Assembly (NCBI GenBank): GCA_963693365.1 | Contig: CAVNZM010000002.1 | Span: 12,580,328-12,644,327 of the forward strand | Reading direction: 5' to 3' | Length of the DNA: 64,000 nt | From: Amoebidium appalachense | Lineage: Eukaryota; Protista; Ichthyosporea | In this document: one piece after another, positions 31,467 through 61,645 of the stretch | Layout of the letters: each line of letters opens with the position of its first letter | How positions within the stretch are numbered: the stretch's first letter is position 1 | Notes under the pieces: generated by a model | The model's database searches: none | What the model was told of the DNA's origin: nothing | The model's input: only the letters and a program-made list of their open reading frames with translations | Made by a program: the position numbers and the translations under genes

Positions 31467-33383
31467 ATGCCAACTTGCGCGGCTAACTACTGCAAAAATG
31501 ACGAAGAAACAGTCTCTCCCAAAGATCCTACCAGGAAGATAAAGCTTTTTACTGTTCCATATGGATACAAACCAAATGTATTGGCTAGGAGGCATGCTTG
31601 GTTAAATGCTATAGGCAGGCAGGAGCAAACAAAGTATGAGCGGAAACAAATAGCAGAACACACAAAGCAAGCACCCCCCGACCCAGACACACACACAGAC
31701 ACAAGGCCAAAGGCCTCGGATGGGACAGACGTAAATACAGACACAACCACTACTGAGACACACACAGCTGACACACAATCCGAAAATGCCAATGACTCGG
31801 CTGTGCCAGCTGAGCAGTCGGCACAAGAACCACAACCAAAGAGGAAACGGGGGCAACCGAAGGTGGAAGTCCCCTGGCCACTGGCTATCCTTAAGCAACT
31901 GGTTGTATGCGAGGCACATTTCACCGATGATGATATTACTGCTAAGAATGGAAAACTGAAATTAACAAAGGATGCATGTCCCATCCGAATGGAACTAGAC
32001 CCGATGTACAGAGAGAAGGTACAGCTATTGAGGGAGGAAAGGGCCAATAGTCATATGCAAGCTGTAGGAATGGATGCCTCAGATATTGAGCAAACACGGA
32101 AACGAGCGAGGGAGCGGGGGGAGACGAGCAGTGAAGAAGCAGAGGACAGTGAACGAGCGAAAAGAAGGAGGGAACATGTGCGTGAAAGGACATTTGACTA
32201 TCTAGAGTCGAAGGCAGGTGAGGAAGGGATGGATGTAGAGGATTATGTGAATGTCCTGGAACGTTCAAGAGCTTTCTATAAGGAGCAGGCGGAGAAAATG
32301 CAAATCGAACTTGAGATAGCTACGAAGCAATTGGAGGAAAATGAGAAGAAACAAAGATTGGAGAAGAAGGAGCTCGAACAAGCGCTTGATCAAGCGAGGG
32401 AGGAATTACTACAAAACCAGAAAAGAATATGCATGGAGGACATAGTGGCGGAAGAGGAAGGGAAGGCTAGAGATGATGTGGTGAAAACATACACGGGGTT
32501 GGATAGTTTTGATGCTCTCATGGGAGTGCTGGGGATTGTTGCTTTTATTGGCCAATCAACTATAAACATGAATGATTTTAAAACCAAAACAGGAAAGGAA
32601 ATAATATGGCATGATGGATGTCTTTTTACACTTTTTCGCCTCCGCCACGGCACATCCTTCCAACTATTGAGTCGGCTGGTGGATGTGTCAGAACCGAATC
32701 TTTCGCGTATATTCCGCCATTTTCTTGGTGCACTGGCGTTAGCACAGGTTTTTCTATACGAAAAAGCCCCCACCAGAGAGCAACTTTCGAAGTTTAAAGC
32801 CGGTTGCTACACTGGGCAATGGGACGATGTACGGTGGATCATTGATTGCACCGAGGTGTTTGTACAGGTGCCGACAAACCTCCTTCTGAAACGATGTTTC
32901 TACTCAGAGTACAAAAGCAATTACACTCTCAAGTACTTCGGGGGCATCACAACGGATATGAAACTCAGACCGGTGTCCGATGCACATGTGGGGGGGTTCA
33001 AAGACCCGGATCTCACAGGTGTATGCAAGCGTGAATTTGTAGATCAGATAGAAGAGGGGGATGAAATAGCAGCTGATAAAGGGTTTAGAGTGCACGGGCT
33101 AATCATGGAGAAGGGTGCTTCCTTGATATTACCGTCGTTTGTTGAGCATGGGCAGCTAAACGCTGAAGACACCATATATAGCCAAAGACTGTCTAGTGTG
33201 CGCGTGCATGTGGAGAGGGCTTTTGGGCGCATGAAAAATTATCGGCTGTTTAGCAATCAGGTGCAGATGTCGATGGTAGGCACCCATTGGATGGTAGCTA
33301 AGGCTGTGGCTTTCTTGTGTAACATGCAAGAGCCACTATATAAAGATATGGTGGGGCCCGGGCACACCAAAAGCATGGTGTAG
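31467..33383 (+). CDS. THAP-HTH-DDE (DDE_Tnp_4-type) transposase, 638 aa, intronless and uninterrupted
   Basis: THAP: CAANYC..F.VP..W..AI..VVCEAHF..DACP. Coiled-coil region follows. HTH: TLFRLRHGTSFQLLSRLVDVSEPNLSRIF. Catalytic motifs: IIDCTE, YSEYKSNYTLK, AADKGF, RVHVERAFGRMKNY. Confidence 0.93.
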   Translation: MPTCAANYCKNDEETVSPKDPTRKIKLFTVPYGYKPNVLARRHAWLNAIGRQEQTKYERKQIAEHTKQAPPDPDTHTDTRPKASDGTDVNTDTTTTETHTADTQSENANDSAVPAEQSAQEPQPKRKRGQPKVEVPWPLAILKQLVVCEAHFTDDDITAKNGKLKLTKDACPIRMELDPMYREKVQLLREERANSHMQAVGMDASDIEQTRKRARERGETSSEEAEDSERAKRRREHVRERTFDYLESKAGEEGMDVEDYVNVLERSRAFYKEQAEKMQIELEIATKQLEENEKKQRLEKKELEQALDQAREELLQNQKRICMEDIVAEEEGKARDDVVKTYTGLDSFDALMGVLGIVAFIGQSTINMNDFKTKTGKEIIWHDGCLFTLFRLRHGTSFQLLSRLVDVSEPNLSRIFRHFLGALALAQVFLYEKAPTREQLSKFKAGCYTGQWDDVRWIIDCTEVFVQVPTNLLLKRCFYSEYKSNYTLKYFGGITTDMKLRPVSDAHVGGFKDPDLTGVCKREFVDQIEEGDEIAADKGFRVHGLIMEKGASLILPSFVEHGQLNAEDTIYSQRLSSVRVHVERAFGRMKNYRLFSNQVQMSMVGTHWMVAKAVAFLCNMQEPLYKDMVGPGHTKSMV

Positions 33384-34020: not shown

Positions 34021-34026
34021 TTACTG

Positions 34027-34074
<48 letters not shown>

Positions 34075-34785
34075 ACACATTATGTTGTACTTTGTGCTTC
34101 TGGTAAAAACATCGGCGGGGGTTACAATCACTCCGTACAGTTTGGGAATGCGCACCGCATTAGCGGTCCCAGGGATGACCGCCGCATCCGCAATGCGCAG
34201 TTTGTATACAACCCGCGGGATGTTATACAGAAGAAGGTCGGCATCCTCAGTGACAACAGTGTGTGCCAAACCGGTACGTGCCATATAGGCAAGCTGGGGG
34301 TCTGCTTCGTATGGAGCTACTGTGTAATCGACATTCTCATCTTTCAGTCTAAGGATGATTGCATGTAAAACTCTGTTATCTAACTCTGCAGCGCTTCTCC
34401 ATTTGTTTTTAGTTACCTCCTCCTGTTTCTCTCTTTTTGTGGCTATTTCTTGGCGGGCTTTGACCACCTTTTCTGCACGGTCGTTATCAACTAGTTTTCC
34501 CTCTTTCAATCTGCGCCCATCAAACACATAGTGTGGCTGGACCCCTGCTAGCCTATACGTATTAACTTTGGACATAAAGTGATTTGCAATAGCTGCATAT
34601 GTGTCGTCTGTGACTTTTTTGTCATCTATTTGCTGTTTGGCTACTGTGTCAGCGAAAACTGAAAAGGACTTGTGGACCTGCACCATCCCGTCAAAAGCAA
34701 CTACCCCACGTTGCAACTCTGCAGTAACATCTGTGGCTTTTTCGGCACTAATGCCGAGTGCTGGGAGCAAGCCCTGCACACCCAT
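34021..34785 (-). CDS. EXO1/XPG/FEN1-family 5' nuclease domain inside the transposon (C-terminus truncated or spliced)
   Basis: MGVQGLLP, VAFDG..VHK, HYVFDG..K..R, VAPYEADPQLAYM, VVTEDADLL are the XPG-N/XPG-I signatures, most like EXO1. Similarity ends near 34085 where the ORF runs into a microsatellite. No helix-turn-helix GxDY motif was found. Confidence 0.85.
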
Positions 34786-35259
34786 GGTAAAAGTGCATGT
34801 ATTCAAAGTAGTTTCTTTTCATGAAAAAAATTCTTTCGGGTTGTGCGCCCTCTGCGTTAACGTGCGAACACAAAAATCGTTGTACGGCGTGGGTGCGTAG
34901 CAACGCGTTACGTAATCAGGGGGAAAAAAGGCGGCGCCAGAAAGAAATCGGGGACCACTCAAAATCGCCGATCCCGTATCCCTTAATGTACCTGTACATG
35001 TGCACATGTGCTTGAGTTTTTGGTCTGCTTGTGTGTGGTTTGTGTGTGTGTGTGCGTGTGTTTTGGGGAGGAAGGGAGGGGGGGGGGGGGGGGGGGGGGA
35101 GTTGGGGGAGGAGGAACATGGAAGTAATGACACACTTGAAACAAGAAAACACGCTGGAAACCACAACATTGTGTTTGCACAAATGACAATTGAAACACTC
35201 AGAGGCCACTGGGTCTTAGCTTACCATCACGTGAGGGGGCATCTATGCGTGTACACAAA

Positions 35260-39024: not shown

Positions 39025-39795
39025 GATGATGAAAGATGTACAAGCAGAAGACGAACAGAGCCCATCATCACGGCGGCTTTTGTGTCTCCGAAAGAATGGG
39101 TTTCGAATCTTAAACCTCTTGCACGTGGTTCCCAACCCACACTTTGTTTCAGCGGCAATAGGCGAGTTACCCGAGTCAACCCGATATGGCCAAAGACGAA
39201 CAAAAATGTTCAAGAAGCATCAATCTAAAAGCTCAAAACCCAAAATACACGAAACAATAAATTAAAAGGGAAAACAAACGGAGGGAGGGGGGTGGGGAGG
39301 AGGGGGGAGGGGGGGAAGTTCAAGGTCAACGCCAAGAGAAAGGGTAACAAGTGAGACAGGAGGGATTATGGACAGAGGCAGGAGGGGGGAGTGAGAGAGA
39401 GAAAGGGGGGAGGGGGTGTTAGGGTGCGAGGGGTTAGGGTGGCGATGGAGGAGGGGGGGAAGAGAGAGAGAGGGGGGGGGGGGGGGAGAGAGGGGGGAGA
39501 GGGGGGGGGGAAGAGAGAGGGGGGGGGGAGAGAGGGGGAGAAAGAGGGGGGGGGAGAGAGGGAGGGAGAGAGGGGGGGGGGGGGGGGGGGGAGAGAGGGG
39601 GAGAGAGAGGGAGAGAGAGGGAGGGAGGGAGGGAGGGAGGGAGGGAGGGAGGGAGGGAGGGAGGGAGGCAGGGAGGGAGGCAGGGAAGGAGGGAGGGAGG
39701 GAGGGAGGGAGGGAGGGAGGGAGGGAGGGAGGGAGGGAGGGAGGGAGGGAGGGAGGGAGGGAGGGAGGGAGGGAGGGAGGAGGGAGAGAGAGAGG

Positions 39796-50969: not shown

Positions 50970-51731
50970 TTAACAGTCACTGAAGCCGCTGCCAGAGTTA
51001 TACTTCATGCTGATTCCGTACTTGGATGCCTGGCTGCACGCACTCGATCCAGCAGAGTACTCAACGCCAAACACAGCCTTGCCATGTGCCTTGAACGAGC
51101 TGTAGTAGTCGCACTCGCCAAAGCGCGTGCAGCTCTCGTTGATGGCAAAGTCGAAGCTGCCCTCGAGACTCTTCATGATCTCAAGTGCGTTCTTTAACCC
51201 AATAAGCATGCCCTTGCTGTGTGCCGTCTGTGCCAGCCAGCGTGCATACTCGATCTCGTCCTGTTTCAGTTCTGACTGCGATTTGTCGACGCAGTTGTTG
51301 AGGAAACAGTCCATGTTGTCTGCCTCGACACCGGCACATCCTTCAGAGCGCATCCTGTCCATTCTCTTCTCCATGATAGGTGCAAAGTCACGCCACCGGG
51401 TGATGTCGAGCCAAGACTCGCCGGTGTACTTGGACTTCTCGCTGGTGTAGGGCTTGAGTTCAGATGCGTCTGACCGCCAGTTCTCGGCTGTGCCTGCGCT
51501 CATGTAGCACACGACGGTAGAGCCGGAGTAGGAGCCGGGGTTGCCGTTGCTTTTGTCGAGGTCGATCATAACGGCATCTTTGCCGTGTGCGTCTGAGGTG
51601 GAGTCGATGTTCCCCCATGCAAGGTTGGCCCATGAGGCGCCTGTGTGCAACCCGGAGCTGCGGCGTGTGGTGGAGGCAGAATCTGCCACAAAAACACAGG
51701 CGAAAAGCGCGATAGTGGTGGTGATCATCAT
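50970..51731 (-). CDS. Secreted glycoside hydrolase family 114 (endo-alpha-1,4-polygalactosaminidase-like), ~253 aa, intronless CDS
   Basis: Signal-peptide-like MMITTTIALFACVFVADS. GH114 motifs VCYMSAGTAENWRSD, GESWLDI, GVEADNMD, AHSKGMLIGLKN, FDFAINESC..FGEC, GKAVFGVEY. The longer ORF-track start is upstream read-through. Confidence 0.9.
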   Translation of the reverse strand: MMITTTIALFACVFVADSASTTRRSSGLHTGASWANLAWGNIDSTSDAHGKDAVMIDLDKSNGNPGSYSGSTVVCYMSAGTAENWRSDASELKPYTSEKSKYTGESWLDITRWRDFAPIMEKRMDRMRSEGCAGVEADNMDCFLNNCVDKSQSELKQDEIEYARWLAQTAHSKGMLIGLKNALEIMKSLEGSFDFAINESCTRFGECDYYSSFKAHGKAVFGVEYSAGSSACSQASKYGISMKYNSGSGFSDC

Positions 51732-53747: not shown

Positions 53748-61069
<7,322 letters not shown>

Positions 61070-61250: not shown

Positions 61251-61550
61251 GTTTGAATGCGGAACACAGTACGAAGTACGCATACACGATGAGAAGCATG
61301 GTGCAGAACACATGCAAAGGCAAACATTCAAGTATGCAACATCAGCCATGCGCACAGTATGCGTCATAAGCAGAGCCCATCCTCAGGGAGGGCCCAAGTC
61401 ATCAATTGCGTCTGAGTTTCGACCCCTTAGCCCGCGTATATACGACGCTCCAACTCAGACAGCAGCATTAACTGGACTTGGGTGGGTCAACCCGTCTTGA
61501 TCAAAGACGAGCAGGGTTGCTTATGCAAGCAAGGTGAGCAAAACGGTGAA
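61251..61550 (-). ncRNA. Intronic structured RNA repeat, copy B; complete hammerhead-like core in permuted order (candidate ribozyme)
   Basis: Minus strand, upstream of the CAG acceptor before the CHTOP-like ATG exon (presumed 5'-UTR intron). GTCTGAG-TT|GGAG (putative cut 61452/61451), GGGTC-GAAA-CTCAGAC (GAAA 61420-17), CTCC-CTGAGGA (61386-80), GACCC (61488-84). Outer stems CATAAGCA/TGCTTATG, GCTCGTCTT/AAGACGGGT, CCCAAGTC/GACTTGGG. Confidence 0.65.
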
Positions 61551-61645
61551 GATGTGTGTGCAAACTAATGCAATGCAGTGAAAAACGCGTATGTGCTTAC
61601 AGATGCACGACACAGAGCAACCATGCCCGGTTGCATGGAAGTAAA

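Follow-up and report, generated by a model that had tools for sequence, protein, structure and literature searches.

A likely hammerhead ribozyme motif, opened between A9 and G10.1, at the 3′ end of a retroelement-like repeat in Amoebidium appalachense

A 64,000-nt stretch of Amoebidium appalachense DNA (contig CAVNZM010000002.1, positions 12,580,328–12,644,327), referred to here as the window, was found to contain a repeat whose 3′ end likely forms a hammerhead ribozyme, with the core elements in a non-circular order, the core opened between A9 and G10.1, and stems I and II closing as a double pseudoknot within one molecule. The repeat is probably a non-autonomous or truncated Penelope-like retroelement (PLE) of the Naiad/Chlamys type. 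The observations comprise the sequence elements, their pairings, double changes within the helices, a core that is intact in the family majority, ends at C-runs, and 5′ truncation. A first-pass annotation had proposed a hammerhead-like motif at this place; it missed a k-turn in the long helix, an alternative stem II two bases after CUGANGA, the position of the motif in the 3′ end of a retroelement-like repeat, and the likeness to Naiad elements. The features are as follows.

61251..61640, minus strand: copy B (~390 nt of the repeat), bordered by a CT/C-rich run on one side and a C-run on the other, with loose ends at 61638
61518..61525, minus strand: 5′ strand of the outer closing stem (P0), pairing with 61372–61365 (8/8 pairs; pair probability 0.89–1.0; three double changes in copy C)
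61514..61516, minus strand: CCC, pairing with GGG 61378–61376, one base past A9 (weak; probability 0.32)
61490..61512, minus strand: 5′ hairpin between A9 and G10.1 (9/9 pairs; base GCUC...GGGU; palindrome in the loop region)
61484..61488, minus strand: stem II 5′ strand (G10.1 = 61488), supplied from upstream as a pseudoknot (5/5 pairs; one double change in copy C)
61476..61482, minus strand: joining helix, which connects stems I and II at their outer ends, pairing with 61399–61393 (7/7 pairs; a double change in copy C)
61465..61470, minus strand: unbulged strand of the k-turn (A at 61469 in copy B, G in the family)
61452..61460, minus strand: stem III strand ending in the GUU triplet, 61454–61452 (stem III 8/8 pairs)
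61448..61451, minus strand: proximal stem I 5′ strand, a pseudoknot with 61390–61387 (4/4 pairs; third pair A–U in copy B, G–C in copy C)
61429..61432, minus strand: distal stem I 5′ strand, pairing with 61394–61391 (4/4 pairs), followed by a 3-nt linker (61428–61426) to stem II
61421..61425, minus strand: stem II 3′ strand (C11.1 = 61421), giving GACCC/GGGUC (5/5 pairs) with G10.1–C11.1
61410..61420, minus strand: GAAA (G12–A15.1; 61420–61417) and the stem III partner strand (pairs counted by coordinates)
61401..61409, minus strand: bulged strand of the k-turn (3-bp stem, 3-nt bulge, G.A/A.G, U.U)
61380..61386, minus strand: CUGAGGA (C3–A9), with no variant at 3% of depth or more in the contigs of four runs
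61365..61379, minus strand: U, GGG, CUC and the P0 3′ strand, including the alternative stem II strand (61377–61373)
61251..61364, minus strand: 3′ tail, common to many truncated pieces and ending at the C-run
1992..2266, plus strand: copy A (core-bearing part 2000–2169); core decayed, with A9 and A15.1 lost (GAAC) and the k-turn intact
12258..12432, plus strand: copy C, of a second subfamily, with private changes at 12284, 12332, 12372, 12373 and 12407
39045..39222, minus strand: copy D, of the copy C subfamily and more decayed, with a 2-nt k-turn bulge
60749..60781, minus strand: 33-nt 3′-terminal piece, identical to the end of copy B and lying between C-runs, one of 11 further tail-only pieces

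The folded domain of copy B spans 61525–61365 of the minus strand, and the element extends further 5′ in some other copies. Read 5′ to 3′, the domain runs through the outer stem strand, CCC, the 9-pair hairpin, U, GACCC, A and one strand of the 7-pair helix; the unbulged k-turn strand, the stem III strand ending in GUU, and the two strands of stem I, which flank a small hairpin; the 3-nt linker, GGGUC, GAAA, the stem III partner, the bulged k-turn strand and the partner of the 7-pair helix; and finally the stem I partner, CUGAGGA, U, GGG, CUC and the outer stem partner. All named helices are fully paired when pairs are counted by coordinates. CUGANGA, GAAA, the UH site and the G10.1–C11.1 pair are thus all present, at the minus-strand places that the first-pass annotation had given, and so are its GUU triplet, stem I GGAG/CUCC and stem II GACCC/GGGUC. 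The separation of A9 from G10.1 by a closing stem and a hairpin, which it had also described, was borne out by the 8/8 and 9/9 pairs of these two helices. By analogy, cleavage is predicted after GUU, at 61452/61451. The linker between stems I and II is short, and the 7-pair helix ties together their other ends.

A descriptor allowing wide spacing, drawn up after copy B had been seen, matched nothing but copy B in the window and had no match in 200 block-shuffled windows, whichever of three stringencies was used. Folding of the nested part gave z = −3.06 for copy B and z = +0.25 for the decayed copy C. Rfam returned 0 matches at gathering score over the whole window, in line with the expectation that standard models would miss the motif and with no match to a known RNA family; the sole match at E ≤ 10 was a chance snoRNA (E = 9.2), and the idea of a box C/D snoRNA was therefore set aside. 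When a covariance model was made from the four copies, it recovered A–D, which are self-matches by construction, and nothing else in the window.

That copies A, C and D each miss CUGANGA at a different base had been noted earlier and holds, with the addition that copy A also lacks A15.1. Stem I is weak in two of them, as had been said: proximal stem I keeps only 1/3 pairs in copy A and 2/3 in copy D, where the hairpin (6/9) and stem II (4/5) are also broken. Stem III of copy C pairs at 10/11 positions, the single G.A mismatch being private decay. Including A and B, 13 A/B-type tail pieces with various start points were found in the window using a tail profile built from eight of them (0 matches in the reversed-window control). 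CCCC lies within 12 nt downstream of 12/13 pieces, against a background of 9%, so that the microsatellite targets and 5′ truncation known from Naiad/Chlamys elements are both seen here. Several truncated pieces start at or just past the CUGANGA block (1871, 3428, 6692, 26695, 28111 and 52949), and such starts look as if reverse transcription may stall at the 3′ edge of the folded domain. Three pieces at 1871–2338 have the same direction.

To place these copies within the family, contigs of sequencing runs were used. At least part of copy B was present in 20 of the 24 listed runs, from 9 studies. In four runs, 4,995, 4,253, 240 and 5 contigs fell on copy B at 80% likeness, and 601, 1,571, 1 and 76 on copy C; the family is clearly large, although depth is no copy number. 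One of the runs was guessed to be RNA and was left out as evidence of expression. In the B subfamily, variants at 3% of depth or more occur at 9/169 positions of the folded domain and 0/16 core positions, a difference that is not significant by itself (P = 0.40). The majority letters of the C subfamily restore CUGAUGA (12407, ~99%), stem III (12332, 12372 and 12373) and the hairpin (12284), so that the misses of copy C are private decay, and GACUC/GAGUC is left unchanged among the variants listed. CUGANGA and GAAA are therefore intact in the majority letters of two subfamilies, as expected from the earlier suggestion that the window copies had decayed from an intact consensus. Copy B and copy C are 60% identical (101/167 columns), and yet N7, the free position, is the one hammerhead core letter at which copy B departs from the C-subfamily majority.

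Double changes were counted by coordinates because stem II or stem III lost its register in the MAFFT alignments. The native copies hold 10 such changes in 7 helices, both pseudoknots included: three in the outer stem, two in stem III, and one each in stem II, proximal stem I, distal stem I, the joining helix and the k-turn stem. Stems I, II and III, which flank the core, accordingly have two, one and two. These numbers rest on two or three lineages and are not a covariation statistic. The claimed change of stem II to GACUC/GAGUC in copy C and the covariation of distal stem I were each recovered as one double change; for stem III, in which a change in copy C had also been claimed, the count is two, and copy C has the G.A mismatch. 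In a third subfamily, seen from 30-letter ends, the joining helix carries a compensated variant at 61397. This subfamily, with loose ends at 61403 and 61490, appears to have a different stem III, joining helix, tail and 5′ region. Three "goes back" joints, in which a diverged tail lies upstream of the 5′ part of copy B, were found in 4 contigs of 3 runs and hint at head-to-tail tandems.

A k-turn consists of a canonical stem, a 3-nt bulge and tandem G.A and A.G pairs. Such a turn was recognized at the end of stem III. It is intact in copy A, where its stem is compensated, and in the B-family majority, in which 61469 is G in 99.9–100% of depth in 4/4 runs; the A in copy B is private, and the turn is readable in copy C and not in copy B itself or copy D. 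Since the long helix carries this turn, a one-molecule fold is plausible and a dimer less needed. The first-pass annotation had left the core to form either as a double pseudoknot or in trans; the non-circular double-pseudoknot order stands, and the need for a dimer is weakened.

Compared with known hammerheads, the order site, GAAA, CUGANGA departs from the cyclic order, without core pseudoknots, of types I–III. The claim that the order was new holds in that respect; the order as such is that of the published, active type SGC (HRIMA-1 and variants), which cleaves at 0.007–0.19 per minute in the accessible part of Eckert et al. (2023, PMC10085705), so that the novelty lies in the split of the CUGANGA block alone. 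That source reports cleavage in vitro for both type SGC and type CSG, the latter from two sequences that both cleave, and its authors assumed the CUGANGA block to be uninterruptible. As in type SGC, the motif has two predicted core pseudoknots, a stem I–stem II linker of ~3 nt, a helix tying the other ends of these stems, and a U after A9. Unlike here, the SGC block is unbroken, and the SGC motifs are mostly 56–104 nt in the alignment rows examined and come from metatranscriptomes; in the present eukaryotic genomic repeat, the stem II 5′ strand lies 100 nt upstream of CUGANGA, and an outer stem, a hairpin and a k-turn are added. A bulged U stands between A9 and G10.1 in 51 of 52 SGC rows examined (PMC10085705), so the opening coincides with a junction that is loose in active ribozymes, too. 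Type CSG has the same cyclic order, and joining its ends and re-opening it at A9/G10.1 would give the present layout. Its intact CUGANGA block comes first, 5′ of the site, whereas CUGAGGA is the last core block here. Minimal PLE hammerheads and non-LTR retrozymes have, as proposed for the present repeat, a hammerhead in a PLE terminal repeat, and like it they occur as many single truncated copies (PMC4209133; bioRxiv 10.64898/2026.07.22.740005), but theirs are type I and, in animals, have a short stem III that needs a dimer. Judged from its layout, the motif would work like types SGC and CSG; it is outside types I–III and CSG, and on the favoured one-molecule reading it lacks the intact block of SGC.

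No description of the split layout was found in the literature searched, most subscription papers lying beyond that search. Pattern scans returned loci in viral contigs (2, at least 120 in 39 of 64 parts, and 21) and in metagenome contigs (25), none of them a relative; nhmmer found relatives at 0/27 loci and the covariance model at 0/48. Applied to 147 loci, the descriptor matched one at the stricter setting and 5–6 at the loosest, and those listed were short chance pairings or looked like ordinary tandem hammerheads. Three viral contigs (L097, L107 and L146) seemingly carry close-spaced ordinary hammerheads, with the GAAA of one followed by the CUGAUGA of the next.

Several observations stand against the one-molecule reading. 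Stem I is a short helix, and in 22–43% of depth its third pair is lost to a change at 61389; in the nested ensemble, which cannot model pseudoknots, U17–A14 is paired at a probability of 0.78, and the strands of stem I are engaged with other partners. The same stem I variant and the pairing of the GUU site would fit a structured but catalytically silent 3′ element, a ribozyme relic retained as a signal to the reverse transcriptase, for recognition or stability. Such an element would also explain why the non-catalytic 5′ hairpin and UGGGCUCUG are conserved as much as the core, and why copy B, although sense-oriented and probably intronic in the host, does no evident harm. We nevertheless consider a silent element unlikely, given that N7 is the only core letter differing between subfamilies and that stems I–III keep the hammerhead register through double changes; U17 itself occurs in 4/52 SGC rows of the accessible alignment (PMC10085705) and in one Naiad CSG-type end.

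The same core might instead assemble in trans, with one molecule providing the site and GAAA and the other CUGANGA and the stem II strand. A possible dimer signal is a six-base palindrome in the loop region of the 5′ hairpin (61505–61496 and 39194–39185 on the minus strand; 2028–2037 and 12286–12295), which is kept in 4/4 copies through a double change, as UGAUCA in A and B and UGGCCA in C and D. The hairpin self-dimer of copy B was calculated at −29.6 kcal/mol against 2 × −10.0 kcal/mol, but an extended duplex is obtainable for any hairpin in such a calculation. A dimeric mode of action has been proposed for animal PLE hammerheads (PMC4209133); stem III here is long and stable, unlike in dimer-dependent motifs, the octopus Naiad ends in the accessible supplement (PMC8557442) have no such palindrome, and the conserved k-turn argues for folding back. 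Dimer-dependent assembly is thus thought quite improbable.

The strand lying two bases downstream of CUGANGA, the alternative for stem II, pairs 5/5 in copies A, B and C and 6/6 in B and C, and the descriptor accepts it, so that the motif could also be read as an ordinary type SGC hammerhead with a 2-nt insertion, the upstream GACYC strand being a competitor that would switch the ribozyme off. In copy C the two helices are about equally stable (−5.0 kcal/mol for the split helix and −4.4 to −6.0 for the other), a point in favour of the insertion. We judge it very unlikely, since in copy B the post-CUGANGA helix is weaker (−3.5 to −5.1 against −7.1 kcal/mol), rich in G–U pairs and without a double change, whereas the upstream strand has one, since this helix is impossible in seven Naiad ends of the same layout, and since the SGC rows examined have at most one inserted base (PMC10085705).

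The split layout was also read in published Naiad elements. In the accessible part of Craig et al. (2021, PMC8557442), no canonical hammerhead is reported for Naiads, some of which are marked "HHR_core" or "HHR_half_core", eight of them as half cores 35–50 nt apart; Chlamys elements are described as inserting at (C)n targets and as having 5′-truncated copies and non-autonomous derivatives, and cleavage of tandem precursors is cited as a hypothesis. Of 61 places in that supplement matching three GAAA-side words, 30 were read by eye, without alignment. The split layout was seen in seven, all Naiad 3′ consensus ends; six of these records end before the headers Naiad_Mley, Naiad_Aacu, Naiad_Anas, Naiad-1_Movir, Naiad_Ovul and Naiad_Omin, and one lies near part 12. 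In all seven, pairing is impossible between the strands that follow CUGAUGA and precede GAAA, and it is an upstream strand that gives stem II its 5–6 pairs. In coral-type ends, as in the present repeat, CUGAUGA is followed at once by the outer stem, and G10.1 is directly preceded by a hairpin with the base GCUC...GGGU; by eye these base letters recur in ctenophore Naiad ends; the k-turn is present in two octopus ends and absent from the coral-type and part-12 ends. Four more of the 30 places are type CSG with an intact block, and the passages at the remaining 19 held no such motif. These four type CSG sequences of the Naiad file (near parts 13, 15 and 16) have stems I–III paired by eye, with a clear joining helix in two; Eckert et al. 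had two sequences of this type.

The Chlamys ends examined had no split layout. Naiads are described in this source as animal elements preferring (TA)n, whereas the present repeat is found in an ichthyosporean and ends at C-runs, like Chlamys; an N-terminal GIY-YIG plus RT ORF, as in these elements, gave no Pfam match in the 190 ORF pieces of the window. Both points weigh against the proposed link, which is suggested by the 3′ layout and the ends of the repeat.

On the favoured reading, a single RNA would fold with stems I and II as two pseudoknots. The outer stem and the 5′ hairpin would hold the upstream stem II strand, with G10.1, beside A9 of CUGANGA, while the k-turn and two bulges would bend the extension of stem III back to the helix tying the outer ends of stems I and II. 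The RNA would be cut after GUU at 61452, and the products would stay paired via the outer stem, stem II, the joining helix and stem III; being held by four helices, they would be favoured for rejoining. No loose ends at the predicted cut site were among those listed, and contigs cannot show RNA ends. In head-to-tail transcripts, two cuts would release unit-length RNAs, giving circles or defined ends for the reverse transcriptase of the element; circularization of unit-length RNAs has been proposed for other PLE hammerheads in the available part of PMC4209133. The layout itself matches that of a type CSG/SGC hammerhead opened anew at A9/G10.1, an arrangement to which tandem copying could give rise. 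A wider proposal, which we put forward tentatively, is that the split-core hammerhead, caged by its outer stem, is an active and ancient 3′ ribozyme of Naiad/Chlamys elements, common to animals and ichthyosporeans, that it is the very hammerhead reported as missing from them, and that it cuts and re-ligates RNA into circles that are reverse-transcribed.

Regarding the host setting, copy B is in the sense direction ~170 nt upstream of a likely splice acceptor (61086–61085) of an exon with an ATG at 61069. The places concerned are 61084–60978 and 54086–53751 (minus strand), and a match to the FoP/CHTOP C-terminal domain (E = 7e-6) lies downstream; by these signals copy B may be within a 5′ UTR intron of a CHTOP-like gene. 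Elsewhere in the window, a D-aminoacyl-tRNA deacylase exon is 100% identical to a EukProt transcriptome protein, the next match being an "Ihof" protein (presumably Ichthyophonus hoferi) at 75%, and four exons match the former at 97–100%. The best named-organism matches of an intronless GH114 ORF (50973–51728, minus strand) are from Sphaeroforma arctica; its relatives are ichthyosporean or other eukaryotic transcriptome proteins and then bacterial proteins, and acquisition from bacteria by gene transfer is possible. An intact-looking ORF of 638 aa with THAP and DDE_Tnp_4 transposase domains (31467–33383, plus strand) adjoins an XPG-like nuclease ORF (34021–34806, minus strand).

If the favoured reading is true, the motif would break the stated rule of an uninterruptible CUGANGA block and add another permutation to the six that Eckert et al. 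count (PMC10085705). It would provide a testable ribozyme for a retroelement clade reported, in the portion of PMC8557442 available, to be without canonical hammerheads, and would extend this layout beyond animals to a unicellular relative whose repeats have Chlamys-like (C)n ends. With thousands of copies, some of them sense-oriented in introns, such a ribozyme could affect host transcripts.
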